A stretch of 64,000 bases of DNA from an uncultured Candidatus Saccharibacteria bacterium. Its GTDB lineage: Bacteria; Patescibacteriota; Minisyncoccia; Phycocordibacterales; UBA12445. Shown piece after piece: positions 10,998 to 53,296 of this stretch; within the stretch, counting starts at the first letter, position 1, and each line of letters begins with the position of its first letter. Made by a program: the position numbers and the translations under genes. Below the pieces are notes generated by a model. It did no database searches. It saw nothing but the letters and a program-made list of their open reading frames with translations, and was not told the origin of the DNA. The stretch covers positions 2,248-66,247 of the forward strand of contig CAZYTH010000002.1 of the NCBI GenBank assembly GCA_964649715.1, in the 5' to 3' direction.

Positions 10998-11679
10998 CAG
11001 GGTTTATAATCAATCGATTATAAAGGAAGGTAATTCGGAAGGTTTTTTCAATGTTTTTATTTTTAGGAAGATTTCTATACATCTTTCTTGGTTATTGGCT
11101 TATTTAGATATTTCTCCTAATAAAATAACTATTTTTTCTTTTGTAATTGGTCTTATTGCTTCTTTTTTATTTTCTTTCGGTTTTTATTATTACACTTTAT
11201 TCGGTTTATTTTTTTATATTATCGCTAATATTTTGGATATGTCTGATGGAGAGGTAGCAAGATTGACGGGAAAGTTTTCGGAGTTTGGTCATTTTCTAGA
11301 TCCCTTTTTAGATAGAGTTCTTAATTTTATTTTTTTGGGTGGGGTTTCCTATGGTGTTTATGTTGAAAGTGGGAATAATTCAATTTTATTTTTGTATGTT
11401 TTTTATTTAATTTTCTCTTTTTTGAATTTATATTTAAACAGTGAATCTAAAAATCTTGGTGGTTTATCTGGAAAAGAATACCTTATAAAAACTACCCATT
11501 TTATTTCAAATGATAATATAAAAAAATATATAAGATGGGATGGTGGTTTTAGCTGTGTTATTTTAACTTTCTTTGTGCTTATAGACAAACTCTATTATTT
11601 CATTTTATTTTTATTATTTTTTTATATTTTTATTTTTTTAGCTTTATTTGTTGGGATTGTAAGAAAACTAAATGCTTAA
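10972..11679 (+). CDS. CDP-alcohol phosphatidyltransferase family membrane protein
   Basis: DMSDGEVARLTGKFSEFGHFLDPFLDRV matches the D-G-x2-A-R-x8-G-x3-D-x3-D motif; multi-TM. Confidence 0.6.
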   Translation: MKINKKDIDRVYNQSIIKEGNSEGFFNVFIFRKISIHLSWLLAYLDISPNKITIFSFVIGLIASFLFSFGFYYYTLFGLFFYIIANILDMSDGEVARLTGKFSEFGHFLDPFLDRVLNFIFLGGVSYGVYVESGNNSILFLYVFYLIFSFLNLYLNSESKNLGGLSGKEYLIKTTHFISNDNIKKYIRWDGGFSCVILTFFVLIDKLYYFILFLLFFYIFIFLALFVGIVRKLNA

Positions 11680-14600
11680 AAGGATTTTAGATGAATTAAT
11701 AAGATATAAATATATTTTATTTCTTTTAATTTTTACCATTTTAATCCATAATGTGTGGTTTTCTTTTGATAATATTTTAACGAGTACAGATTGGAGATAT
11801 TGGTTTAACGAATCAGCTAAAGAGGCATATTATTCTATTACGCCATGGATAGGTTTTTTTCATTTTGGTTATTTTAATGTACAAATGTATCTTTATTTTC
11901 ATATTTTTTTGTTTTCTCTTTTAGCTAATTTGGGTTTTGAAAGTGGTTTAACTTTAAAAATTGTTTATTTAATTCCGGTTTCAATAATGGGTTTTTTGTC
12001 TCCATATATCCTTGTCAAAAGATTGGTAAAAAATAATTTTATTGCTTTTGTTTCCGCATTATTTTACGGCACAACAACTTATTTTATTTGTAGACAGACA
12101 GCACATCTTTATATCGCTTTTATTTATTCTATTGCCCCATTGATATTTTATTTTTTTATTTCAGCTCTTTCTTCAAACAAAACAAAAGATTGGATATACT
12201 TCTTTTTGATTTCTTTTGTGGGTATTTGTTATGAGGCAAGGATAATGTTTATTGTTTTTTTTATTCTTCTATTCTATTTTATTTTTTTCCATGTTCTCGA
12301 GATAAAAAAATATTGTCGTGCTCTTTTTTTATTTTTTTGCTCCCTTTTGTTTTTTAACTCTTTTTGGTTGATTCCAACACTTCTCGGGGGCTCACAGGCA
12401 GGTATTGAAGAGATTACCGCTAGGGGTCTATTTGGTAATCATTTCTTTTCTTTGACTAACTCATTTACTATTCAAGAGTATGCGTGGACTGGTGGGGAAA
12501 TATTTGCTTTCGTAAAACAACCTGTCATTTGGTATTTTTGGTTTATACCATTATTCGCATTTTCAACCTTTTTATTTAAAAAAGCAAAGTATAAAAAAGA
12601 GTTGTTGTTTTTTGGGATATTGTCTTTGGTCGGCATATTTTTAACCAAACAATCTTCGGAGCCATTTACGGGGGTGTATCTGTGGTTATATAATAATTTT
12701 CCTGGTTTTTCTCTTTTTAGAGAAGCATCAAAACTATATTTAGTTACGTCTTTGGGATATCTTGGTTTAATATCTTATGGTTTAAGTATTTTCAAAGAGT
12801 CTAAAAATATTTACCTAAATAAGTATTTATTTTATTTTTTTTCTTTCTTGTTTATTGGAATAGCGTTTATTAATGTAAAACCTCTTTATACTGGAGAGAT
12901 GAAGAGAATGTTCGTTCCGAGAGAAATTCCGAAAGATTATTTAGTTTTTAAAGATTTTTTATTTAATCAAGAGAGTTTTTTTAGAACAGTCTGGGTTCCT
13001 GTGGTCTCAAGGTGGGGTTTCTTTTCTAATTCTTTTCCACGTGTATCTTTTGTTGACATGTTGAATAGTTCTTGGTCTGCGGTGTCAGATTATTCAAGCC
13101 CTAAAATGAAAAGGATAGCGAAGGAAGAAGCCATTTTGAATATATATAATAAAAATTTTGCTGATGAATTATTTGATATTTCTTTATTAAAATACATTGT
13201 CATTCCCATTAATGAGAAAGAAAATGATATTTATTTTTTTGATTCTTATGGTGGAAGAGAAAACCCTGGTGTAAGGCAATCGTATATTGAAAAACTGAAT
13301 GAAGTTTCTTGGCTCAAAAAGATAGATATCGGAACAAAGGATCTCGTGGTCTATGAAAACGAAGATTATAAACCACCAATATTTGCTTTTGATAATTTGT
13401 TTGGGTTAAATTATTTTTCCGACATTGATAAGAAATATGATCTTGCGTCTTCTAAACTTAAGAAAGAATTTTATTTTACTGTTGCAGATAAAAAAAATCA
13501 CGATGGCTCACCGTTATCTCCTCTTTTTGGTATTTTTGAAAATATTTCCGCAGATAATATTGGAAAAGATATTTCTTCAATCTTCCCTGGTCTTGGTCAG
13601 AGAGTTTTTAATTTATACAAGAAGAATACAAATGGTGTGGTCTTTTATTCTTTTGATGGTGATAAGGCGGTTTTTTACACAAAAGAGCGCGGAGTCTTGT
13701 CTCTAAATGGCATTAATGTCTCAGGGGCGGATGGTGAGAAAGATACCATTAGAACATTTTGGGCTATTCCTGGTGAGAAGTATTATATTTCCGAGGGTGG
13801 CACACTGTCTCCTTTGGTTAATGGAAAAGATTTTTATTTTGGAGATAACAAGAATGAAAAGACGATCAAAATATTTTCTGCAGGAGAGAATATATTGAAA
13901 AATGGTTCTTTTGAAGAAGGATTGTGGCAGGAAAAGGTTGGGGATTGTAATCGTTATGACAACAATTCAATAATGTCTATGAGTTTGGACAAAAAAAACA
14001 AAACCGATGGGGAAAATTCGCTAAGACTTGAAGCGACCACTCATATAGCATGTACTCTTACAAGGATACCTATCGTAGAATCAGGTAAGTATGTGTTCGG
14101 TTTTGATTATCAGAGTTCAAATTCTAAAATATCCGCATATCATCTTCGTTTCAATGACGCGGATAAAACATTGGTAAATGGCGTCCTGCCGATAGGCGAT
14201 AACAAATGGCATAGTTTTTTGAAGGAGATAGACATCCCTCCTGACGCAACTTCCGCCACTCTTCATATTTATGCTTATTCTTCAGACGGATTAATTAACA
14301 ATATTGTCAGATATGATAATTTTGAACTTCGTGAATTATATTTTGAGAAAAAATTAATTATTCCCGCCGAGAGGGGTGAATTTAAAAAGAGCAAAATAGA
14401 GATGGCGGAGGGGGGTAATGTTTTTAAATATGAAAGCAGTTTCTTTGACTATAAAAATTTATTTGCCAACGGTTCTTTTGAAGAAGGATTGTGGCAGGAA
14501 AAGGTTGGGGATTGCAATAATTACGACAAAGAACCGGTTATTGCTATGTCTTTGAGCGAAGCAACGAGCTCGGACAGAAGACGGTCGCTTCAGCTTGAAG

Positions 14601-15394
14601 CGGCGCGCCACATTGCTTGCACGGGCACGGCTACGAATATAGATGCCGGATCGACTTATTTTTTCATTTTTGATTATCAGAGCGATAATTCTAACACGGC
14701 TGGTTATCACATTGGTTTTAATGACAAAAAAAAGACAGTTATTGCGGAAAAGATAACTGTAAAAGATAAAAATTGGAATACTTTTTCTAATATCATAAAA
14801 GCCCCCGAAGGTGCGACCGCGTTTTCTCTTAACGTTTATGCTTACTCTAAGAATGAGAAAGAAAGAATGATAAACAGATATGATAATTTTAAGCTTATCA
14901 AAATTCCCGATTTGATTGGTTCTTATTACTTGGTTGGTGATCCCAGTATCAAGATTGAGAACCCTGCTTCTGTCGCCTTTGAACTTATAAATCCGACCAA
15001 GAAACTTGTACATATAAAGGGAGCATCGACACCTTTCTTTTTGGCTATGAGTGAAAGCTATCATCCGAAGTGGCAACTTCAAATGAATAATGACAAAGTG
15101 AACGGGTTTTTCAATTCATGGATGCCTTTCGTGGTTCCCGATAAAGTTTCCGATGACAGGCATTACAAATTGAACGATTTTTTGAATGCATGGTACGTGG
15201 ACACGGGGGTTATGTGTCATAATAATTCGGCTTGTGTAAAAAATGAAGATGGATCCTATGACATCGAGCTCGTTGTGGAATTTTTTCCCCAGAGATGGTT
15301 TTACTTAGGTCTTCTTATAAGCGGAATGACACTTACCGGATGTATTGGGTATCTGACGTATGAATGGAGAAAAAATAAAAAACAAATTGTATGA
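11672..15394 (+). CDS. large integral membrane protein: N-terminal multi-TM (GT-C-like) region plus two tandem CBM4/9-like beta-sandwich repeats and a C-terminal TM
   Basis: About 550-aa polytopic N-terminal region. Duplicated NGSFEEGLWQEKVGDCN...Y.YS domains at aa about 744 and 933; terminal hydrophobic helix. Confidence 0.5.
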   Translation: MLKRILDELIRYKYILFLLIFTILIHNVWFSFDNILTSTDWRYWFNESAKEAYYSITPWIGFFHFGYFNVQMYLYFHIFLFSLLANLGFESGLTLKIVYLIPVSIMGFLSPYILVKRLVKNNFIAFVSALFYGTTTYFICRQTAHLYIAFIYSIAPLIFYFFISALSSNKTKDWIYFFLISFVGICYEARIMFIVFFILLFYFIFFHVLEIKKYCRALFLFFCSLLFFNSFWLIPTLLGGSQAGIEEITARGLFGNHFFSLTNSFTIQEYAWTGGEIFAFVKQPVIWYFWFIPLFAFSTFLFKKAKYKKELLFFGILSLVGIFLTKQSSEPFTGVYLWLYNNFPGFSLFREASKLYLVTSLGYLGLISYGLSIFKESKNIYLNKYLFYFFSFLFIGIAFINVKPLYTGEMKRMFVPREIPKDYLVFKDFLFNQESFFRTVWVPVVSRWGFFSNSFPRVSFVDMLNSSWSAVSDYSSPKMKRIAKEEAILNIYNKNFADELFDISLLKYIVIPINEKENDIYFFDSYGGRENPGVRQSYIEKLNEVSWLKKIDIGTKDLVVYENEDYKPPIFAFDNLFGLNYFSDIDKKYDLASSKLKKEFYFTVADKKNHDGSPLSPLFGIFENISADNIGKDISSIFPGLGQRVFNLYKKNTNGVVFYSFDGDKAVFYTKERGVLSLNGINVSGADGEKDTIRTFWAIPGEKYYISEGGTLSPLVNGKDFYFGDNKNEKTIKIFSAGENILKNGSFEEGLWQEKVGDCNRYDNNSIMSMSLDKKNKTDGENSLRLEATTHIACTLTRIPIVESGKYVFGFDYQSSNSKISAYHLRFNDADKTLVNGVLPIGDNKWHSFLKEIDIPPDATSATLHIYAYSSDGLINNIVRYDNFELRELYFEKKLIIPAERGEFKKSKIEMAEGGNVFKYESSFFDYKNLFANGSFEEGLWQEKVGDCNNYDKEPVIAMSLSEATSSDRRRSLQLEAARHIACTGTATNIDAGSTYFFIFDYQSDNSNTAGYHIGFNDKKKTVIAEKITVKDKNWNTFSNIIKAPEGATAFSLNVYAYSKNEKERMINRYDNFKLIKIPDLIGSYYLVGDPSIKIENPASVAFELINPTKKLVHIKGASTPFFLAMSESYHPKWQLQMNNDKVNGFFNSWMPFVVPDKVSDDRHYKLNDFLNAWYVDTGVMCHNNSACVKNEDGSYDIELVVEFFPQRWFYLGLLISGMTLTGCIGYLTYEWRKNKKQIV
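13901..14514 (+). repeat. intragenic tandem duplication (two CBM-like domain copies sharing a 44-nt identical core)
   Basis: ggttcttttgaagaaggattgtggcaggaaaaggttggggattg at 13904-13947 and 14471-14514. Confidence 0.6.
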
Positions 15395-18716: not shown

Positions 18717-18833
18717 TCGCGTTAGGATTCTTCCATTACGTGGACGGTATACCTTTTGAACATATTTTGTTCGTGCTTCGCACTTCAAAATATGCTCAAA
18801 AGGTCTTCGAACGTGGGACGAAGTTCGACAGGC
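18717..18833. repeat. structured dispersed repeat, copy A (family also at about 27511-27700 and 30205-30535)
   Basis: Shares aggattcttc..gacggta.accttttg.a.atatttt..aaaatatgctcaaaaggt..ttcgaa..acgaag with copies B and C. Contains an 18-bp inverted repeat around a gtgcttcgcac hairpin. Confidence 0.5.
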
Positions 18834-18913
18834 TATTATTATTAATGGTGGATGTAGTAAAAGTGAGGCCGTCTCGTTGAGAAAAATAAATAAGATATGA
18901 TACAATAATTTTC

Positions 18914-20975: not shown

Positions 20976-21004
20976 TTGCATAATATTTTTGTAACTTATA
21001 TAAT
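20976..21004 (+). promoter_or_regulatory. sigma70-like promoter TTGCAT-N17-TATAAT driving ncRNA copy 1
   Basis: -35 at 20976-20981, -10 at 20999-21004. Confidence 0.45.
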
Positions 21005-21010
21005 ATTTGT

Positions 21011-21124
21011 GAGGTTGATGGTTTGACAGGTTAGGTCGTGAGACATAACCACTCGGTTGCAACAGACCGATAGAATCATTCATCTTGTCAAATATCCTGC
21101 GCAAGTAGGATTTTTTGATTTTTG
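21011..21124 (+). ncRNA. candidate small RNA, copy 1 of a two-member family (second at 53178-53296)
   Basis: Own promoter. Conserved 5' ttgatggtttga.agg; hairpin with GTGA tetraloop showing compensatory changes between copies. Conserved cactcggttgcaacagaccgatagaatcatt, then GNRA-capped terminator stem plus T run. Confidence 0.5.
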
Positions 21125-27510: not shown

Positions 27511-27700
27511 TTTACTCCGCGGGTAGGAATTTCGGTCCTTACAGGACCAGTACCCCCGATGGATTTTTTGTTCGTGCAGAGCACTCTAAAAAATGCTCAT
27601 CGGGGCTTCGAATCCTGACGAAAGCCATGGGTAATGGCTTTCTCCCGCGTTCGCAAAAACAGAAAAAGCACCATAAAGGTGCATTTCTGTTTTTACTCCC
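27511..27700. repeat. structured dispersed repeat, copy B (begins with a 14-nt copy of the tRNA-Asn 3' end)
   Basis: tttactccgcgggtagga..., ttcgaatcctgacgaaagccatgggtaatggctttctccc (9-bp perfect hairpin), then hairpin plus ttttactcc. Confidence 0.5.
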
Positions 27701-27827
27701 CAAACAGGTTCAACAACGTTGCTCTCAAGCCATTGTAAGGGTCTTTGAGATGCTCATTGAGTGGGATCGGACGCAAACAGGTCGAAAAGATGCAGGTGAG
27801 AAATGAGACACCATAAAAGAGTTTGTA

Positions 27828-30204: not shown

Positions 30205-30535
30205 GTGTTTTTTTGATTTACTCCGCGGGTAGAAGGATTCTTCGCTTACATCGACGGTAAACCTTTTGGATATTTTATTTCATCTTCGTAAACTCAGATC
30301 CATAAAATATGCTCAAAAGGTTATTCGAATCCTAACGAAAGCCATGGGTAATGGCTTTCTCCCTTGGAGGATTCTTTCTCTATGAGAACTGTATAGGTTT
30401 CCCATTTTTTCGGATTAAAAAATCCTCAAAAATATAGGAGAACCTTTTCGAATCCTACACGGAAACCAAGCAGTTGGTTTCCTCCACTCCGTAAAATGAA
30501 AAAGACCCTATAAAGGGGCTTTTTCATTTTACTCC
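30205..30535. repeat. structured dispersed repeat, copy C (compound; contains an 18/20 match to the tRNA-Asn 3' end)
   Basis: tttactccgcgggtagaaggattcttcg... plus two ttcgaatccta.acg-hairpin-ctcc modules and a terminal hairpin plus ttttactcc. Confidence 0.5.
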
Positions 30536-30657
30536 ACATCGTGAACGAAGTTATAACCTATTTTAAGACCACGGACCAATACCATTACATACCAGCCTTT
30601 TAATTAAGATAGCCCGTGTTTGCCCTAAAATGCCCTCGTGTAGGGCTTTTCAAGTGC

Positions 30658-31896
30658 TTATTTGATAGTCTTGAGGAGTTCTGAATTGTAACCCTTTAAG
30701 TCGACCTTTTTTGAGGCATCATATGCTATGTTTTCTACTTCTTTAAGATAAACGGTGTTTTTTGAATAATCAGAGAGTGTCATGTCATTCTCATTAAAAT
30801 CCATAACCACGTTACGATTTCTGTTTTGAGTTATTTGAGCATGACTATAAGCATCGATGTAGACCATATTTTGCCATTTATCGAGTAAGCGGAAATGATT
30901 TTGACTCTCAGACCAAGCAAGTGGCACAACGTGGTGTAATTCAAAGCCTTTAATTTTGTCTTTAATTTTATGGTTAACAAAGTACTGATATTTTTCATTG
31001 AGTGACCGATCAAGTCTTTTTGGTGATTCACTGCCACTGAAACTATTCTTACCAGTTCTCAAGACTAGTTGTTCACCCCTCTGCTCGAAATACACAGTCT
31101 GGTTTAATAAAGTGTAAACCTGTTGTGCCTCATTTCTCCAATTATGAAAATCTCTTTTCTTGATTTTATTTCCAGCGAACTTTTCTGGAACTAAATCATT
31201 TTTTAATGTTTCTAGTACAGCCTGTCTTTGTATGTTTGATAAAGCCCTATACGATTTTATTAATTCAACTGCCTCGTCTGGTGTTATGTTAAAAGTCGAG
31301 TCAACAACACCAATAGCGGATACAAAAAATTGATATTCAGACAGCGAGATACTATCTATTCCATAATCAGCGTCTCTGAGAATATCAAGGACCATATCGA
31401 TAGAACCACTCAACAAAGTATCAATAGCCTTTGAGAACACGAATTCTTGATCCAAGATAGTTTGCGCAGTTATTAATTTGTGACCAAGTTCAGAGAGTGC
31501 TACGTATTTAACACTAGATCGTGCAAATGGGTCTAGTGGCTTTTTATTTTTATCAAATCTATTTATTAGCCCCATTCGATGTAAATCAACGAATAGGTTT
31601 TTTCTCATAGCATCCTGTGTACCAATGCCCGATAATTCTTTTGCGGCATCACAGAATCGTGCGTAGACTGCTTCATCGGGAGTATTCTCTGGTCTCTTTG
31701 ATAGGTCTGCTGTTCTTATTGCCATCAAAGATAAACTTGGTGCGAATTGGTCCAACAATTTCAAAATACCCACAATTCTTGTCGAATCATATCTGTTGTG
31801 TTGCGAGAAATGAAGCCCACGATATTTATCATCGGCTATTCTCCTGGTTATGAATTCCAGTGATTTATTTCCTTGGTTAATATCAATTAATGCCAT
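30658..31896 (-). CDS. restriction endonuclease-like protein with C-terminal HNH nuclease motif
   Basis: GFELHHVVPLAWSESQNHF...DAYSHAQI (HH..N..H) at C-terminus. Operonic with two DNA methyltransferases, with 14-nt overlap. Confidence 0.5.
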   Translation of the reverse strand: MALIDINQGNKSLEFITRRIADDKYRGLHFSQHNRYDSTRIVGILKLLDQFAPSLSLMAIRTADLSKRPENTPDEAVYARFCDAAKELSGIGTQDAMRKNLFVDLHRMGLINRFDKNKKPLDPFARSSVKYVALSELGHKLITAQTILDQEFVFSKAIDTLLSGSIDMVLDILRDADYGIDSISLSEYQFFVSAIGVVDSTFNITPDEAVELIKSYRALSNIQRQAVLETLKNDLVPEKFAGNKIKKRDFHNWRNEAQQVYTLLNQTVYFEQRGEQLVLRTGKNSFSGSESPKRLDRSLNEKYQYFVNHKIKDKIKGFELHHVVPLAWSESQNHFRLLDKWQNMVYIDAYSHAQITQNRNRNVVMDFNENDMTLSDYSKNTVYLKEVENIAYDASKKVDLKGYNSELLKTIK

Positions 31897-32665
31897 ATTC
31901 TTTTAAGTTCTTTTTTGCTAATTCGACATACTTTTTATCTGCATCAGCACAGATAAAATTCCTCTTTAGTCTGTTTGCAGCAACTGCCGTCGTACCACTT
32001 CCAACAAAACAATCCAAAACAAGATCACCACGTTTTGAACTTGCCTTTATTATACGCTCAACTAGGTCGAGTGGCTTAGGCGTAAGATGCTCCATTTTCT
32101 GCGTCTTTCCGTTAACTTTTCTTTTATGTCTTTCGCTTGTTATATGCCACACTTCACCACAAAAACGACCGTCTGGATTTGGAAACCAACGTTTACCATT
32201 TTTTAAGATACCTTTTTCTGCTGCGTGTTGAATGCGATCGGTAGATTCATAAGGAATTCTTATATCGTTGTAATTAAAAACATGCTTATTTGATTTAGTA
32301 AAAAATAAAATAGTCTCTTGACCATTACTATATTTTCTTTTCGAAGCACCAAGACCATCTCTTTTATCCCAGGTAATCCAATTTTGAAATACCATTTTCT
32401 TTGATACAAGGTACTGGAGAATAAAAGCGGAGTTGAACGGCGTATTGAATACATACAAACTACCATTGTCCTTTAATTTTTCAATAACTAAATCTAACCA
32501 TGCGTACGTAAAATTCAAAAAATCTGATTGTGATTTGAAAGTATCCCAATCTGCTTTATGCATATTGTAAGGGGGATCAACCACAACCAAGTCAATTGAT
32601 TTATTATCAATTTTTTTCAAAAAATCAAAGCAATCCAAATTGTGTATTTTATTAATTTCCAACAT
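31883..32665 (-). CDS. DNA methyltransferase (N6-adenine or N4-cytosine, beta class), DPPY motif
   Basis: DLVVVDPPYNM (motif IV) then C-terminal FVGSGTTAVAA (motif I): ParB-like/N6_N4_Mtase order. Confidence 0.75.
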   Translation of the reverse strand: MLEINKIHNLDCFDFLKKIDNKSIDLVVVDPPYNMHKADWDTFKSQSDFLNFTYAWLDLVIEKLKDNGSLYVFNTPFNSAFILQYLVSKKMVFQNWITWDKRDGLGASKRKYSNGQETILFFTKSNKHVFNYNDIRIPYESTDRIQHAAEKGILKNGKRWFPNPDGRFCGEVWHITSERHKRKVNGKTQKMEHLTPKPLDLVERIIKASSKRGDLVLDCFVGSGTTAVAANRLKRNFICADADKKYVELAKKNLKEYGIN

Positions 32666-32667
32666 AA

Positions 32668-33528
32668 TTATTTTTTCAATTTGAGATTGATAACTTTCTC
32701 ATAACTCTTGGATATTTCATACCCAACATAGTCTCTGCCTAATTCTTTTGCTACTTTAAGTGTGGTTCCAGAACCAGCAAATGGGTCCAGGACCAACTCG
32801 CCAACAAAAGTAAACAACTTAACACAGCGTCGAACTATCTCCTCAGGCATAAGAGCAGAATGTTCACCAAAAGCAATGTCACCCTTACCTGGAATAGGGA
32901 TATTCCATATTTGCTTTGTAAGTTCAACCCACTCCTTTTGAGTTAACTTACTTTTTTCTTTAATATCTTTAGGAACATTATTTTCAGGTTGCCCATCCTT
33001 TACATAAACAGTAATAAATTCAATAGTGTTTTGTGCATAGAAATTACGAGGGTACGGATAACTTCCAAACATTAATTTTTTTGATGGGTTTGTGCGATTC
33101 CAGATATACACATCCATCAAAAAAAGACCCGTGCCATTAATAACAGAATGTTGAATATCACTATTGATATCAAAAATATGACGATTATAGTGAGTAATTA
33201 AATTCTTTTTAAGCATCGGCATTAACGGAGTGTTTATGATAAGTTTACCGTTTGGTTTTAATACTCTCTCACACTCTTTCCATACCTCTAACATTTCTTT
33301 TATGTATTTTGAGTAGTCTGGAATATCGCCGATTTGCCCTTTTGCTTTTGAAATTTTCTTTTTTTCTTGGCGACCATCCATGGAATAGTCTTTGATATTA
33401 AAATATGGTGGACTTGTTACGATCAATTGAACAGAGTTGTCTGGCAACTCCTTCATATCTCTCGCATCCTTAAAAAATACTTTGTTCTTATATTCCATAA
33501 AATTATTTTTTGTATTGCTTTTTTGCAA
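32668..33528 (-). CDS. DNA methyltransferase, SPPY motif (N4-cytosine type likely)
   Basis: LIVTSPPYFN (motif IV) and C-terminal FAGSGTTLKVA (motif I). Confidence 0.75.
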   Translation of the reverse strand: MQKSNTKNNFMEYKNKVFFKDARDMKELPDNSVQLIVTSPPYFNIKDYSMDGRQEKKKISKAKGQIGDIPDYSKYIKEMLEVWKECERVLKPNGKLIINTPLMPMLKKNLITHYNRHIFDINSDIQHSVINGTGLFLMDVYIWNRTNPSKKLMFGSYPYPRNFYAQNTIEFITVYVKDGQPENNVPKDIKEKSKLTQKEWVELTKQIWNIPIPGKGDIAFGEHSALMPEEIVRRCVKLFTFVGELVLDPFAGSGTTLKVAKELGRDYVGYEISKSYEKVINLKLKK

Positions 33529-33709
33529 TTTTTACATTCGAAGTTAGTTGCAAAAACTTCTCAAGGTCCTGTTCGTCAATTCTCCAATAACCGACCTTTG
33601 ATGCTTTTAGTTTACCTTCATGAATGTAGCGAAATACAGAGCGTTCACTCACACGGAGCACCTCTGCAACTTCTTTTGTATTAAGAAATTTTGTAGTCAT
33701 TTTTTTCAT
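33503..33709 (-). CDS. excisionase/MerR-type helix-turn-helix DNA-binding protein
   Basis: FLNTKEVAEVLRVSERSVFRYIHEGKLKASKVGYWRIDEQDLEKFL matches the Xis/AlpA HTH_17 pattern. Confidence 0.65.
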   Translation of the reverse strand: MKKMTTKFLNTKEVAEVLRVSERSVFRYIHEGKLKASKVGYWRIDEQDLEKFLQLTSNVKIAKKQYKK

Positions 33710-34022
33710 TTGGTCTCCTTGTTACATTTTAACTTTTATGAAAACTTATGTCAAAGTGTGTCATGTTGTTTCTTGATTAAATTATACAGTGGAGGTATAA
33801 TTGGAACGCTACCCATATAGTTTGTAATAATCCAAAACGGGCAAATGCCTTTTTGTGTCACGTAGTTGTGACCAGAGAAGGGCAGTTTGTCCCTGCCACA
33901 ACTACTGTCGCCCTTTTGGGTTACAGACTATGTGGGTAGCCAGGTGTACAGGCTGCCCCTTTCTTGTTTTTAGGCGCAGCATAAAGTCGAAAGCCTGAAT
34001 TAATAATTTAGGAAAAAACTAT

Positions 34023-34481
34023 ATGCTATTTAATGTAATTTTTGCACTTTCATTTTTATTTGTTGCAGACTTGTTATGGCGACGTCACAAGAAAAACAAA
34101 CAAACAAAACTTCTCAATAATCCTGATTTTTTAATAGAACAAATTGAGGAGAAAAAAAGTAAATTCATACCTGCTATTGCTAAATCGTCTGAAAACTCAA
34201 ATTGGGATGTGTATAGCGAGATACTCAAAGATATTGAACAGACAGATTCGCAATTTTTGCAACTAAAAGAAAGGTACGTACATGATAAAGAAAAACTGTT
34301 AAATATAATAAAGGATTATGATAACTACTTAGCAAGTCAGAGTACCTTGTATTGGGCGTGGAGAGCGCTGTATACGGACCTGGAGGATGGTGCTAGCGAC
34401 AGGTTCGATGAGGAGGCAAAAGAACCTAGAATAAGAATTGAGGAAATAAAAAAACGTTTTACTGTTTTGCTAAATAAGTAA
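34023..34481 (+). CDS. hypothetical membrane-anchored protein (island cargo)
   Basis: Single N-terminal TM, charged coiled-coil-like remainder. Confidence 0.3.
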   Translation: MLFNVIFALSFLFVADLLWRRHKKNKQTKLLNNPDFLIEQIEEKKSKFIPAIAKSSENSNWDVYSEILKDIEQTDSQFLQLKERYVHDKEKLLNIIKDYDNYLASQSTLYWAWRALYTDLEDGASDRFDEEAKEPRIRIEEIKKRFTVLLNK

Positions 34482-34538
34482 GTTGCCCCAGGGCAAATGC
34501 TCGATAAATAAGGCACAAAATGGTAAAATGTATTTACT

Positions 34539-35273
34539 ATGGTTTCAGAGTTGGAATTCAAAATTAAATTTGTTTTGGAGTATTTAAGGAATCAAATACA
34601 GGATGAAAATCAGCCTGAAACTTTTGAAATTGACCAACAAAAATTTGATTTTGATAATAGTCGTGGTGGCATCATTCCTAAGAATGTAGAGGTTAGAGAT
34701 ATTGTTCGGCAAATTACCTCAGGGAATGAACTGGGTGAAATACTTGATCACATATCAGATATAACAAATGGAGAATTTAAGTTAGTATCGATTGCGCCAA
34801 TAAGAAAGGTTGATTCAAGAAATCCAATAGAACTTACTTTTGGTACCAAAAAGTTGAAAGTGGCACCAGCCCATACTCAGTGGTCTAGTGGATATAATGC
34901 TTGGACCGTTGAATACCACCCCGAAAAGAAGCATTTACAAAAGAAAATCCTATCCAATAAGCAGGTTTTTAATTTTTACATAAACAAGGATCGAGAACTT
35001 ACCCAAGTGCTACCAGATAGACCTGAAAAGACAATTAAAATTACTAAAAAACAGTACGCATTTTTTGAATTACTCGTTGAATATGACCACTCCTATGCAC
35101 CAGCAAAAGACATTGCGGAAACTATTAAAAGCCCTACGAAGTATGTTCAAAATTTAGCACAACTACTTAAAAAGGAAATAGATAAAAACTTTGTCGGTAT
35201 TACAGGAAAAGAATTCATTGAATCGGATGATGGGTATAGGATAGGTAGAAAAGTGAAACTCATATTGAAGTAG
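34539..35273 (+). CDS. protein with C-terminal OmpR/PhoB-type winged-helix DNA-binding domain
   Basis: ITKKQYAFFELLVEYDHSYAPAKDIAETIKS...VQNLAQLLKKEID...GYRIG resembles Trans_reg_C. N-terminal 150 aa unassigned. Confidence 0.45.
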   Translation: MVSELEFKIKFVLEYLRNQIQDENQPETFEIDQQKFDFDNSRGGIIPKNVEVRDIVRQITSGNELGEILDHISDITNGEFKLVSIAPIRKVDSRNPIELTFGTKKLKVAPAHTQWSSGYNAWTVEYHPEKKHLQKKILSNKQVFNFYINKDRELTQVLPDRPEKTIKITKKQYAFFELLVEYDHSYAPAKDIAETIKSPTKYVQNLAQLLKKEIDKNFVGITGKEFIESDDGYRIGRKVKLILK

Positions 35274-35717
35274 TGCACAAAAATAAATTGTGGATAAGTA
35301 GAAAAAGCACAGGAAAATAAACCTGTGTTTTTTCTATTTTGTGCACCACTTCTGGTATTTATTGTGCACATTACTAACTCCTAGAATGAGTCATAGGAGT
35401 TGGATCCAACCTACAAACGTTCGCTTTGGTCCCAACTCCCAAGGCGAATTTTTGTTTTTCAGGAATCCGCCACTGAACAGAAATGTTCACGTCACCGAAC
35501 TCTTCGTACAAGAGAACCTAATGACGAAAATTGATAGGTGGCATGTACGCCAATACGGATACCTCATCAACGTGCAGAGGAAGCGGTGTCTGAGTGGAGC
35601 AGTAACCTCCACCACCCCTCCCAGCAACCAGTACCTAGAAAACACAAGCAAGAAAGTTGAAGTGAGTCGTGGATACCAAAAGTAACTACTTCCTACTGCA
35701 ATTGAAAGGAATACGGC

Positions 35718-35906
35718 TTGGGGGGTTCGGGCATTGCAATGGCAATAGCAAATACTATGCGAGACAAACATTATCCAAATAGGTCGATAAGACTATCAGA
35801 CGAAGTGTGGGAAACATTCAAGAGCCAAGTAAAACACTCTGGTAAGTCTTGGAATTTGTTTGTGCGTAATTTGTTAGCCAAGAACAAAAACAAGCAAAAG
35901 AAATAA
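35718..35906 (+). CDS. ribbon-helix-helix (CopG/Arc-like) DNA-binding protein
   Basis: RSIRLSDEVWETFKSQVKHSGKSWNLFVRNLL: beta strand plus two helices typical of RHH. Confidence 0.45.
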   Translation: MGGSGIAMAIANTMRDKHYPNRSIRLSDEVWETFKSQVKHSGKSWNLFVRNLLAKNKNKQKK

Positions 35907-36071
35907 GTTTTATGATTAGCCAGCAAACATTACAAGAATTCAAAGAGATCTTTGAAAAAGAACTCGGACCAATGCCAGACGAGGAAGTCTTGCTTGATTC
36001 GGCTTGTGATTTGCTGACACTGTTTGATAACACCTACAAACCCATAAAAAAGGAATGGGTTGAGAAATTTC

Positions 36072-36285
36072 CCCCAGGGCAAAAAGAAATGGTGGAAAAT
36101 GGACAATTTATTGCCCCAGGGCAAAAAATAAACCAAGAAAACCAAGAAAATAATTTCCCCAGGGCAAAAATAACAGGCAATAACAGATAAAATTATCTAA
36201 TAAATTGCCCCAGGGCAACAAAAAACGGTAGAAAACGGATAAATAATTCACCTTATGCAAATACACAATTATTGCCCCAGCGCAA
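36072..36285. repeat. iteron-like direct repeats, five copies of TT(G/T)CCCCAGGGCAAAAA; sixth copy at 34486-34496
   Basis: Cores at 36072, 36114, 36157, 36208 and 36275 (the last with one mismatch); spacing 42, 43, 51 and 67 nt. Confidence 0.55.
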
Positions 36286-36391
36286 AAAGAAGTGGTGAAT
36301 GTGGATAGTTTTATGTAAAAAGTCATTGGAGTCATGCCAATCCACTAGACTTCTATTAAAAATTAAGGCATGTTCGTAATAAGAAAACCCT

Positions 36392-36577
36392 ATGAAAAAA
36401 ACAAGCAAAGTAAGTCAATACTGGAAAAGTAGAGCAACCTTCATAAACCAACATTTAGGTGCTGAGGTACAACCACTTACTCCCTTAGAACTAAGAGAAA
36501 TGCATAGTCGAAGCATTAAGAGAGGAATTAGCCATAGAAAATTAAATCCAAAGTTATATGAAAACCCAACCAAATAA
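36392..36577 (+). CDS. small basic protein immediately upstream of and overlapping the recombinase start
   Basis: 61 aa, lysine/arginine-rich. Speculative recombination directionality factor or leader peptide. Confidence 0.2.
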   Translation: MKKTSKVSQYWKSRATFINQHLGAEVQPLTPLELREMHSRSIKRGISHRKLNPKLYENPTK

Positions 36578-38192
36578 CCCAATCAAGTACTTTATTTATG
36601 CCCGCAAGTCGAGCGAGGATAAAGAAAAACAAGTCGCATCTATTGAGGACCAGTTAGAAGTTCTTAATAAAATCGCAATACAAAATAACATTAAAATAGT
36701 ACATGTATATGAGGAATCACAATCAGCCAAAAAACCAGGCAGACCACAATTCACCGCCATGCTCGAACGGATTATTAAAGGCGATGCTAGTGGGATACTT
36801 TGTTGGAAACTTGATCGCCTGGCTCGCAATCCTATTGATGGTGGGCAGATAAACTGGCTACTTCAACAAGGAACAATACAAATTATTAAAACAAACGAGC
36901 GAGATTACTACCCAAGCGACAACGTTTTGATGATGCAAGTTGAACTTGGTATGGCTAACCAATACATTCGAGACCTTTCATCAAATGTAAAGCGTGGGCT
37001 CGCTAAGAAATTACGTGATGGCTGGTTACCAGGTCTTGCACCTATCGGATACTTAAACGATCGAACAAACGAAAAAGGAAATCGCACAGTTATGAATGAT
37101 CCTGATAGATTTGTACTGGTTCGTAGAATATGGGACCAAGCACTTACTGGTAATTACACAGTGCCTCAGTTATGGGAGTACTCGAGAAAAGAATTGAATC
37201 TAACAACCGTACTAAGACGAAAGTCTGGAGGTAAGCCATTATCAAAAAGCGCAATGTATTCATTACTCACTAACCCGTTTTATTACGGAATGATTCGGTA
37301 TCCTGAAAAGACTGGTGAACTACATCAAGGTAAACACGAACCAATGATAACGGTCCAAGAATTTGACCGTGTACAAGACATAATTGGCACTCGTAACGCA
37401 ATACGACCTAAGAATGAAGTGTTTGCTTTTACTGGTCTTATGAGGTGCGGTAACTGCGGTTGCTCAGTAACTGCTGAAAGTAAAATAAAGCGATGTAAGA
37501 ATGGAAATTCGCATTACTATACCTACTACCATTGCACTAAAAAGAAAGTCGACATTAAATGCGATCAAAAAAGTGTAGAGGTACGTAAACTAGAGACTAT
37601 GTTCAAAGAGAAATTGATGAACTTGCAAATCTCAGATGCGTTCAAAGCATGGGCAATAAAACATTTGCACGAAATAAGAACCACTGAGGCAGATAGCAAC
37701 AAAATAGCAATGAGTGTGGCATCCAAAGAACTCGCAACCGTGTCAGAGCAACTAAGAGCACTAACTTTGAATTACACATCACCACAGAACATAAACAGAT
37801 CGATAATGACCGAGAGTGAATACTTGGAATTTAAGAATGACCTATTAAAAAAGAAAGAGACCGCAGAGAGTCGAGTTAAAACAACATCAGACGAACTCGA
37901 GTCTTGGGTTGAACTTAGTGAAAAAACTTTTAATCTAGCGTTCTATGCGAGTGTTTGGTTTGAAAAAGGAACGAACGAACAACGTAAAGCAATAATGTCG
38001 TGTTTAGGCTCGAACCTCACACTGAAAGATGGAAAAATCCAACTATACATGCATCCTTTCATTGAAACGCTTATTCAAAACAAAAAATATGTCACTATTG
38101 AGAATCCAAAGGTTAGAACCTCTGAAAACTCAATGTACATAAGACAAAACGCCGCTTTAGGCGACGTTTCATCAAAGTGGCTCCGCGGGTAG
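36558..38192 (+). CDS. large serine recombinase (resolvase-domain integrase)
   Basis: YFIYARKSSEDKE...IEDQ resolvase N-domain with catalytic Ser. Recombinase domain and CGNCGC...YYHC zinc-ribbon. The 3' end overlaps tRNA-Asn. Confidence 0.85.
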   Translation: MKTQPNNPIKYFIYARKSSEDKEKQVASIEDQLEVLNKIAIQNNIKIVHVYEESQSAKKPGRPQFTAMLERIIKGDASGILCWKLDRLARNPIDGGQINWLLQQGTIQIIKTNERDYYPSDNVLMMQVELGMANQYIRDLSSNVKRGLAKKLRDGWLPGLAPIGYLNDRTNEKGNRTVMNDPDRFVLVRRIWDQALTGNYTVPQLWEYSRKELNLTTVLRRKSGGKPLSKSAMYSLLTNPFYYGMIRYPEKTGELHQGKHEPMITVQEFDRVQDIIGTRNAIRPKNEVFAFTGLMRCGNCGCSVTAESKIKRCKNGNSHYYTYYHCTKKKVDIKCDQKSVEVRKLETMFKEKLMNLQISDAFKAWAIKHLHEIRTTEADSNKIAMSVASKELATVSEQLRALTLNYTSPQNINRSIMTESEYLEFKNDLLKKKETAESRVKTTSDELESWVELSEKTFNLAFYASVWFEKGTNEQRKAIMSCLGSNLTLKDGKIQLYMHPFIETLIQNKKYVTIENPKVRTSENSMYIRQNAALGDVSSKWLRG

Positions 38193-38252
38193 GATTCGAA
38201 CCTACGACCAACCGCTTAACAGGCGGTCGCTCTACCACTGAGCTACCGCGGA
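38178..38252 (-). tRNA. tRNA-Asn (anticodon GUU), CCA encoded
   Basis: Reverse complement tccgcggtagctcagtggtagagcgaccgcctGTTaagcggttggtcgtaggttcgaatcctacccgcggagcca folds as a cloverleaf. 7-bp acceptor stem; ctgttaa anticodon loop. Confidence 0.85.
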
Positions 38253-38461
38253 ATATGTTTTATACAATAATACCAAATTAAAATTTACACTCAAATAATG
38301 AGCTCTGCCCAAGGCGGACAGGTACCATAGAATATATTTTTGTTTAAAAAGAACTGATAAGCATACTACCAAAAAAGTTAAAAAATGCAAAGAAATTAGC
38401 TCGGCTTTGTTTTTAGTTTTTTTTAGTATAGTATTTAGGTATTAAGAAATAAAGAAAATAT

Positions 38462-53142: not shown

Positions 53143-53171
53143 CTTGATTTTTTTTATCACTACTTTATAAT
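53143..53171 (+). promoter_or_regulatory. sigma70-like promoter TTGATT-N17-TATAAT driving ncRNA copy 2
   Basis: -35 at 53143-53148, -10 at 53166-53171. Confidence 0.45.
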
Positions 53172-53177
53172 TATGAA

Positions 53178-53296
53178 TAGATTGATGGTTTGATAGGTTG
53201 TGTCGTGAGACACAGTCACTCGGTTGCAACAGACCGATAGAATCATTTTATCTCGTCGAGAAGTTCCGGGTCAAACCGGGGCTTTTTGATTTTTGG
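53178..53296 (+). ncRNA. candidate small RNA, copy 2 of the family at 21011-21124
   Basis: Same conserved 5' and central blocks. Hairpin tgtgtc-GTGA-gacaca versus ttaggtc-GTGA-gacataa in copy 1. Own terminator ccgggtcaaaccgggg plus T run. Confidence 0.5.

Follow-up and report, generated by a model that had tools for sequence, protein, structure and literature searches.

A probable serine recombinase element at the 3' end of a tRNA-Asn gene, whose integration appears to divide its own recombinase gene

Unidirectional genome insertion relies chiefly on serine integrases, which textbooks link to sites in protein-coding genes. The locus described here raises the question of whether such an enzyme has a tRNA gene as its target, where the DNA that it moves begins and ends, and what becomes of a recombinase gene whose 3' end lies in the insertion site. 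The DNA analysed is a stretch of 64,000 nucleotides from contig CAZYTH010000002.1 (the window), in which a large serine recombinase (LSR) gene, int, runs toward a tRNA-Asn gene (anticodon GTT) on the opposite strand and overlaps its 3' end by 15 nt (38178-38192). An initial annotation, made from the letters of the sequence, had described this gene pair and had proposed an integrative element of about 8 kb, bounded on the left by a tRNA-like repeat near 30.2 kb, in a host of the Candidate Phyla Radiation (CPR). Both genes were recovered at their annotated positions (Table 1), and the names on related genomes, Paceibacteria/Parcubacteria, agree with a CPR host. The element and its association with the adjoining recombinase also stood, as set out below. 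Its left boundary did not. Loci used for comparison are denoted by L and a number.

Identity and limits of the element

To describe the recombinase, its protein sequence was compared with family and structure libraries. Pfam placed a PF00239 Resolvase catalytic domain at residues 12-155 (E=2e-22), and PF07508 Recombinase (215-278) and PF13408 Zn_ribbon_recom (291-353) domains, both above cutoff; an N-terminal YARKSS... motif can be read in the sequence. The protein matched the PHROG integrase family phrog_95 at 4.6e-71. Sequence matches in the PDB were to the SPbeta YokA/SprA and A118 serine integrases, with structures of the A118 integrase C-terminal domain matching residues 212-358. Matches to the NCBIfam CcrB/CcrA models were weak (81 bits, against a Ccr equivalog cutoff of 900 bits). 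Judged by its domains, the window enzyme is a large serine recombinase. A scan of the viral contigs of IMG/VR returned zero matches to it. Exact-protein database look-ups of the recombinase and of the 422-aa protein on the right flank gave no identical record, and a metagenome scan with the latter gave no match.

An empty tRNA-Asn site, which the initial annotation had proposed to look for, was found in related genomes. The nearest genome was located through RsgA (P0002, 83% identical) and is represented by loci L066, L067 and L069, in which rsgA has a tRNA-Asn gene 267 nt upstream. In blastn alignments, the L066 tRNA up to its terminal GGAG aligned to window positions 38263-38181. From the same GGAG the alignment resumed at 30535-30366 (84% identity), and then passed to 30242-30196 and 26105-25979. 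Since the tRNA-Asn of the relative is contiguous with the counterpart of 30535 to 30366, the 7,649 bp between the CTCC at 30532-35 and the CTCC at 38181-84 are an insertion. The orthologous site is therefore occupied in the window and empty in L066, L067 and L069, with precise limits. The true left end lies at 30532-35 and not at about 30211, where the initial annotation had put it, and CTCC is all that it shares with 38181-84.

The same element was also observed at the same target in unrelated surroundings. Locus L001, whose recombinase is 80% identical, has nucleotide homology to window 30532-38256 (80%) between unrelated flanks. Loci L152 and L153 carry the same restriction-modification (R-M) cargo (restriction endonuclease 81% identical) at tRNA-Asn in another genomic context. 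Their junctions read ...ATCGGAG/CCACTTTGAC and ...CACGATGTGGAG/CATTTGAC, after which comes a host Exo_endo_phos gene. Collectively, these results indicate that window 30532-38184 is very probably a 7.65-kb integrative element that its own LSR placed at the outermost 3' end of tRNA-Asn, a judgement that covers the element and its limits.

The crossover and the divided recombinase gene

Genome and metagenome scans yielded 145 related loci, nearly all of them in Patescibacteria. A census was made of the 121 loci, window included, in which the 3' end of the recombinase gene could be assessed. The recombinase gene was followed by an intact convergent tRNA-Asn in 45 of the 121, by a tRNA-Asn with a group I intron in its anticodon loop in 25, by a tRNA fragment at a contig end or similar in 8, and by tRNA-His (5), tRNA-Trp (1) or tRNA-Cys (1) in others; in the remaining 36 there was no tRNA. 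Thus tRNA-Asn adjoins the recombinase in at least 70 loci, and His, Trp or Cys tRNAs adjoin it in 7. An earlier idea that the loci in which ARAGORN reported no tRNA were tandem arrays was rejected; most have a tRNA-Asn split by a group I intron. ARAGORN misses these intron-split genes, of which there are about 25 among the related Patescibacteria loci. One example is in L005 (11681-12004, minus strand), where the intron in the anticodon loop matches Rfam RF00028 at 73 bits.

Both ends were identified in 15 elements, of 7.06-11.5 kb, and the only bases common to all 15 junction pairs were CTC, which is GAG on the tRNA strand at tRNA nt 71-73. Because only CTC is common to the 15 attL/attR pairs, the crossover is placed at these nucleotides. 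Such limited identity would be as expected of a serine recombinase with a 2-bp overlap. The attachment sites are short, there is little identity between attP and attB across the 15 pairs, and the crossover dinucleotide would be GA or AG. By eye, the inferred attP has imperfect dyad symmetry. In the mechanism that we propose, the recombinase would bind an attB made up of the final ~20 bp of that gene for the tRNA (3' half of the T arm and 3' strand of the acceptor) and the poorly conserved trailer, cut at the 2-bp overlap (GA or AG), and join attB to the attP CGTTCACGATGTGG-AG-CCACTTTGATGAAACG. The predicted attP junction sequence of the excised form is GTTTCATCAAAGTGGCTCCACATCGTGAACGAAG (search string GACGTTTCATCAAAGTGGCTCCACATCGTGAACGAAGTTATAACC), and that of attB at the empty site is TTTCATTTTACTCCGCGGGTAGGATTCG (search string GGGGCTTTTTCATTTTACTCCGCGGGTAGGATTCGAACC).

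The arm of attP beside the recombinase, P', holds the hairpin AAAACGCCGC-TTTA-GGCGACGTTT, which on the minus strand reads as a tRNA terminator. A hairpin was always found in this arm: its sequence varies between loci, its pairing is kept, and a T-run comes after it on the tRNA strand. This constant presence of a hairpin and T-run suggests that the element replaces the trailer and terminator of the tRNA. The mature tRNA sequence is intact in the window, and the element brings an encoded CCA that the empty site does not have. Integration would thus leave all 73 nt of the tRNA unchanged. The new trailer (CCA in the window) and the hairpin/T-run terminator would come from the element, both lying within the recombinase coding sequence.

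To determine what integration does to the recombinase itself, all homologues were extended in frame and their C-termini were compared. Two classes were found. Integrated copies end in residues encoded by the tRNA sequence: the window protein ends ...SSKWL/RG, with RG and the stop codon after Leu542 both encoded by the tRNA, and many others end ...SSLGL/RRQDSNL (the slash marks the crossover). Copies of attP type or in tandem run on past the crossover, as in ...L/RMLNEIRTFF..., L/RLMEDVRTCF... and L/DIAREIGTFWKTNK..., and copies with no tRNA next to them have a conserved tail: WL/RMLNEIRTFFRENPDAEF and stop in L073, GL/RLMEDVRTCFV and stop in L074, and RL/DIAREIGTFWKTNKAHIWLPNIKQGFFG... in L096. 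When the far end of the window element was read in frame from its CTC codon, it was found to encode LHIVNEVITYFKTTDQYHYIPAF and a stop codon. Only excision, which yields the attP form, puts this far-end exon in frame with Leu542. In a pattern search, about 20 integrated elements had a detached tail exon at the far end, for example LDLVREVVTFWKTNKDHIWIPNIKQGFFGITQPTAEEMMSYK and stop in L014, and one in L087. attP therefore lies inside the int open reading frame (ORF), and int is partitioned on integration. Since attP is inside the ORF, an excised circle would encode a full-length enzyme with a tail of 23-42 residues. The integrated copy would encode a protein ending in 2-10 tRNA-derived residues, its last 23-42 codons being detached while the other 541 codons remain an intact ORF.

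The detached exons bear the marks of protein-coding sequence. In the aligned tails the crossover Leu and one Thr are nearly invariant, and the consensus is phi-x-[DEN]-[VIF]-x-T-x-[FW]... over a length of 23-42 residues. The tails of the window and L001 differ by 5 synonymous codons and 1 amino-acid change in 23 codons. Of the 42 codons compared between L027 and L087, 10 differ synonymously and 4 change the amino acid, and many synonymous differences separate other tail pairs as well. The far-end tail of L014 and the int-contiguous tail of L096 have 25 of 42 codons identical and 31 of 42 residues the same. The exons are open despite lying 7-11 kb from the rest of the int gene. Detached exons that stay open and conserved with many synonymous differences suggest that the elements regularly pass through a circular form. 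The two recombinase isoforms likely differ in activity or directionality, although this is unproven, and we raise only tentatively the thought that the tail swap has a regulatory meaning. The words GTTAGAACCT and GTTATAACCT flank the crossover on both sides in many loci. In the window they occur at 38110-38125 and 30553-30562, where they encode VRT and VIT, and they may be either a repeated peptide motif or a DNA site.

Contiguous tails were observed in two kinds of setting. In the tandem arrays of L002, L010 and L033, the inner recombinase continues in frame into a foreign tail exon, that of the adjacent element; in the L057 array there is no recognisable tail after the core. In all four, tRNA-Asn lies 4-10 kb further on. 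Junctions of attP type were also found on short contigs of other loci (L012, L073-L075 and L096). When the attP-type contigs were compared all against all by blastn, the int-contiguous tail of L075 matched the far ends of the integrated elements L076 and L057; that these contigs are circles is unproven.

Several points weigh against an integrative element moved by its own recombinase. No circular form or attP junction of the window element was seen, and the short contigs had no terminal overlaps. Tandem arrays could account for every attP-type junction in other contigs, as they clearly do in L002, L010, L033 and L057. The comparison sequences are all metagenome-assembled genomes or metagenome contigs. 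The empty-site relative is a different species, so that its site may never have been occupied. Part of the conservation of the tail could reflect a DNA motif, given the GTTAGAACCT-like words on both sides of the core. For a directionality factor there are only candidates, namely the helix-turn-helix (HTH) protein at 33503-33709, the ribbon-helix-helix (RHH) protein at 35718-35906 and a 61-aa ORF. In composition, the element equals the host and is not distinct from its flanks. Lastly, the recombinase gene of L152 is seemingly broken into small ORFs, indicating that some copies of the element are decaying.

The composition, the degraded int of L152 and the unobserved circular junction would also suit a fixed and immobile remnant, that is, a lineage-specific island with an inactive or domesticated recombinase that records old events only. 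The same can be said of the truncation of the recombinase by integration and of the window tail, which at 23 residues is shorter than the 36-42 of most relatives. A remnant is nevertheless improbable, because int is an intact ORF both in the window (544 aa) and in dozens of diverged copies that are integrated, the detached tail exons are open with many synonymous differences, near-identical cargo occurs in three genomic contexts, and the site is polymorphic between relatives. We therefore retain the reading of an integrative element with its own LSR.

tRNA-like repeats and structured modules beside the element

The initial annotation had taken two repeats resembling the tRNA 3' end as attachment sites. 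The repeats exist beyond chance: the 16-mer TTTACTCCGCGGGTAG is found without mismatch at 27511 and 30217, against an expectation of 0.17 matches, and the tRNA matches it at 13 of 16 positions at 38177. Their coordinates had been given 2-10 nt off; ctccgcgggtagAAggattc is at 30221-40 and not at 30211-32, and ctccgcgggtagga at 27515-28 and not at 27513-26. As attachment sites they do not hold. They lie about 290 nt (given that the element ends at 30532) and 3 kb outside the element, and they are the 3' ends of dispersed modules of about 150 nt. The annotation had allowed that the repeats might be merely members of a dispersed family, which proved true of the repeats and not of the element.

Could these repeats still delimit an ~8-kb element with a crossover in the T loop, and a second, integrase-less element in tandem at 27.5-30.2 kb? 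They are real and non-random, their similarity to the tRNA ends in the T loop (after GGATTC) in the window and likewise in L007 and L014, the relative lacks the 26.1-30.37 kb segment, and this recombinase family does form tandem arrays (L002, L010, L033, L057). However, the sequence between the 30.2-kb repeat and the cargo, 30366-30531, is host DNA found downstream of tRNA-Asn in the element-free relative, and homology to L001 stops at 30532. Repeats of this kind also end modules at 18.7 kb, in L066, L070 and L115 and at other loci. Neither a tail exon nor P/P' arms are present in 26-30.5 kb, so the integrase-less unit loses its footing too, and in both L007 and L014 tail exons mark true far ends that lie inside the T-loop-type repeats. 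We consider this arrangement highly improbable, and a T-loop crossover with the tRNA-like repeats as attachment sites was rejected by the empty-site alignment and the table of junctions. The element bounded by CTCC at 30532-35 and 38181-84 remains the preferred reading.

The modules were examined as possible structured RNAs. Using nhmmer, four copies were found on the minus strand of the window (30221-30365, 30366-30494, 27515-27650 and a degenerate one at 18722-18846), and further copies in L066 (two), L070, L025, L014, L115 (two) and L081; one in L084 was recognised by eye. The 3' part of a module repeats the final ~20 nt of the local tRNA-Asn, which recur as a reverse complement, broken by a hairpin, in the 5' part. 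Between the two parts are a long hairpin and a small hairpin with the loop yGUAA. In the three hairpins the sequence changes and the pairing is kept. RNAalifold predicted 17 pairs, 12 of them with compensatory changes; 89.9% of cells were paired compared to 70.9% in shuffles, and the covariation score was 0.518 compared to 0.186 in shuffles and at most 0.196 in slid structures. Single sequences fold into cloverleaf-like forms with z-scores of -3.5 to -5.7. The modules matched no Rfam family.

Modules are also found downstream of tRNA-Asn in the element-free relative (L066). In L081 and L084, tRNA-Asn is followed by a terminator, a module and the LSR element in that order, and the location of the element at the module 3' end suggests that this end can serve as an insertion site. 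The module may be a tRNA-like RNA, a secondary landing pad or what is left of another recombination system. A derivation from the ends of LSR elements was rejected since the module arms are unlike P or P', and a mere decaying tRNA fragment is hard to square with the compensatory changes.

Compared to L066, the window has 4.2 kb extra 3' of tRNA-Asn (26.1-30.37 kb). The absence of this segment from the relative, together with the decayed block of tRNA-Asn, terminator and module within it, suggests that the tRNA-Asn neighbourhood is a variable region or hotspot. The terminator after the decayed tRNA-Asn (27650-27771) is 88% identical to the tRNA-Asn trailer of the relative, and the whole is a degenerate second copy of the block downstream of tRNA-Asn. 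A further 16.7 kb of the window (38.26-55.0 kb), 5' of tRNA-Asn, is absent from L066 and holds a P-type ATPase, HlyD/ABC/FtsX genes and a tRNA-Ala.

Cargo and relation to known systems

The cargo appears to be a type II (IIS, MboII-like) R-M system. Its genes lie in the order methyltransferase, methyltransferase, restriction endonuclease, with overlapping ORFs, in one operon. The initial annotation had recognised the restriction enzyme, the two methyltransferases, the excisionase-like HTH protein and the RHH protein. Its HNH label for the 412-aa restriction enzyme was not borne out; this protein has no Pfam match, a PDB search gave nothing useful, and its homologue is named MboII. Nor did the winged-HTH label find support for the 244-aa protein, which has no match in Pfam, PHROGs, NCBIfam, PADLOC or PDB. 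In L072, whose recombinase is 89% identical, the backbone is common with the window and the R-M genes are not, which suggests that the cargo is exchangeable. The backbone consists of the HTH protein, the Arc-like RHH protein, an operator-like palindrome array and int. The HTH gene, kept in L072 despite the different cargo, is a candidate R-M controller, element regulator or directionality factor. Most related loci have the RHH gene conserved upstream of int.

The iterons of the initial annotation proved to be six near-palindromic copies of TTGCCCCAGGGCAA, none of which lies outside the element (9 strand-matches compared to 0.34 expected). Their region is conserved at the nucleotide level in L001, L072 and L073. 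They may be operator-like or iteron-like; they are dyad-symmetric and, lying upstream of int, have the look of operators. Their clustering beside the unannotated 244-aa ORF and the RHH gene bears on whether the element is an integrated small plasmid, or a phage or satellite, that replicates after excision with the 244-aa protein as Rep and the 14-bp sites as iterons. The attP-type junctions on the short contigs of L012, L073-L075 and L096 would fit such a form. No Rep, relaxase, capsid, terminase or other hallmark, and no other virion, conjugation or replication gene, was found in the element with Pfam, PHROGs and NCBIfam; the 244-aa ORF is variable and not conserved among relatives, IMG/VR holds no relatives, and no contig has a terminal overlap. 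Together with the operator-like form of the sites, these results make a replicating plasmid or phage rather unlikely, and a non-replicative island is the preferred form.

Table 1. Positions of the element, its junctions, its genes and the neighbouring modules in window coordinates (last row: coordinates of the named loci)
Feature	Position	Strand	Evidence
Integrative element, core to core, 7,649 bp	30532-38180		Empty-site alignment; L001 homology; junction table
Far junction core CTCC, left element end	30532-30535		tRNA...GGAG of the relative runs into 30535 to 30366; L001 homology starts at 30532
tRNA-side junction core CTCC (GGAG on tRNA strand, tRNA nt 70-73)	38181-38184		Empty-site alignment; 15 junction pairs
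Detached recombinase 3' exon, (L)HIVNEVITYFKTTDQYHYIPAF and stop; also P arm of attP	30535-30603	+	Translation; homologous tails; synonymous changes
P' arm of inferred attP, inside recombinase coding region	38146-38180		Sequence; hairpin kept across loci
Large serine recombinase (int), integrated truncated form, 544 aa	36558-38192	+	Pfam; PHROG; PDB; C-terminal census
tRNA-Asn(GUU), integration target	38178-38252	-	ARAGORN; Rfam tRNA 76 bits; 88% identity to tRNA-Asn of the relative
Type II restriction endonuclease, MboII-like, 412 aa	30658-31896	-	PADLOC REase_II E=3e-135; homologue named MboII
DNA methyltransferase 1 (N6_N4_Mtase)	31883-32665	-	Pfam; PADLOC MTase_II
DNA methyltransferase 2 (N6_N4_Mtase)	32668-33528	-	Pfam; PADLOC MTase_II
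Excisionase-family HTH_17 protein	33503-33709	-	Pfam HTH_17; TIGR01764 above cutoff; PADLOC mad1-like
Two ORFs, 152 aa and 244 aa	34023-35273	+	No matches in libraries; 34-kb bin absent from most loci
Arc-like RHH protein	35718-35906	+	phrog_6506; 35-kb bin conserved
Five 14-bp near-palindromes TT(G/C/T)CCCCAG(G/C)GCAA, upstream of int	36069-36285		Motif count; sixth copy at 34483-34496
Original tRNA trailer and terminator hairpin (30495-30531) and 'sub-module' (30366-30494), outside element	30366-30531	-	84% identical to downstream region of tRNA-Asn of the relative
Module C, 3' end is the 18/20 repeat of the initial annotation, outside element	30221-30365	-	nhmmer; structure
Module B, outside element	27515-27650	-	nhmmer
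Decayed tRNA-Asn-like sequence and terminator preceding module B, outside element	27650-27771	-	Sequence comparison
Modules elsewhere	L066 8233-8382 and 10539-10637; L025 4222-4380; L115 4420-4542 and 5406-5531; L081 2593-2705		

Two features of the element are unusual, the tRNA target and the position of attP inside int. Phage-type LSRs (phiC31, Bxb1, A118, SPbeta SprA/YokA) have the same Resolvase, Recombinase and zinc ribbon domains, the same minimal identity of 3-4 bp between attL and attR, which fits a 2-bp staggered crossover, and int at the element edge beside attP. However, they typically use sites in protein-coding genes, whereas the window element uses a tRNA 3' end, has attP inside the int ORF, resides in a CPR host, belongs to elements of 7-11 kb and has no phage genes. 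Mageeney et al. 2020 (PMC7192596) described serine integrases as 'not known for targeting tRNA genes', with only 14 of 297 at t(m)RNA genes. The shares that they gave for such genes were 4.9% of serine integrase elements compared to 44.5% of tyrosine integrase elements, and in their words the use by serine integrases 'has not been reported previously' and would have to be proved. Among tyrosine integrases, the islands and prophages at tRNA genes (P4/lambda-like; sublocation classes of Williams 2002) also have the tRNA 3' end as target, a preserved tRNA, an adjacent integrase gene, tandem arrays and defence cargo. They differ in recombinase family and in the shared core, which is 15-76 bp for tyrosine integrases at tRNA genes (PMC8092301) and 3-4 bp in the window. 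With the crossover at nt 71-73, none of the mature tRNA needs replacing, unlike in the tyrosine-integrase islands.

The closest parallel in design is with the SSV1-type 'suicidal' integrases of archaea. As described in two reports (PMC7253208, PMC8371274), these have attP within int, a tRNA target and an int gene split to opposite ends of the element, integration disrupting the gene into two parts (PMC7253208). They are archaeal tyrosine recombinases, whereas the window enzyme is a bacterial serine recombinase with only its last 23-42 codons detached. As it is not a tyrosine recombinase, it falls outside the SSV family; the window element would resemble the SSV type in design and not in membership. 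Cassettes of the SCCmec type, with CcrAB/CcrC at the 3' end of rlmH (orfX), are likewise LSR cargo islands at the 3' end of a housekeeping gene that is not inactivated. Composite and tandem SCCmec arrays with recombinase-less units are known. In contrast to SCCmec/Ccr, the window element has a tRNA and not a protein gene as its target, a single recombinase, and a split int. In the integration-dependent switching of mycobacteriophages (PMC8092301), attP again lies within an ORF, and bacterial sequence gives the protein a new C-terminus and stop; there the repressor is affected and the integrase is a tyrosine integrase, whereas here the recombinase itself is affected. Literature searches, which were of incomplete coverage, gave no description of tRNA targeting or of attP within int for serine recombinases or for CPR bacteria.

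A large, diverse clade acting on the conserved final ~20 bp of tRNA-Asn, and in some relatives on His, Trp and Cys tRNAs, would broaden the known target choice of serine integrases, and offers candidate integrases with attB in a tRNA gene. A crossover within the integrase ORF is a natural experiment on the role of the C-terminus in directionality, by way of two natural isoforms. The locus also documents the movement of small R-M/defence islands among CPR/Patescibacteria, where mobile elements are poorly described, and presents tRNA-Asn as a hotspot there for introns, modules and tandem arrays. A more far-reaching possibility, which we hold to be open to considerable doubt, is a widespread CPR clade of LSRs specialised on tRNA 3' ends with a switch of state, in which the tailed isoform made from the circle and the tail-less isoform made from the integrated copy would differ in direction or activity, and in which the modules would be functional as pseudo-attB sites (L081, L084) or as a new tRNA-like non-coding RNA.

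Two minor observations concern other parts of the window. A direct repeat of 82 nt (84% identical) occurs at 20999-21080 and 53166-53247; it has a TATAAT-like start and internal complementarity, and it has no Rfam match. At window 11672-15394 there is a large ORF (1240 aa), within which repeats recur at a spacing of 567 nt (13889/14456 and 14090/14657).

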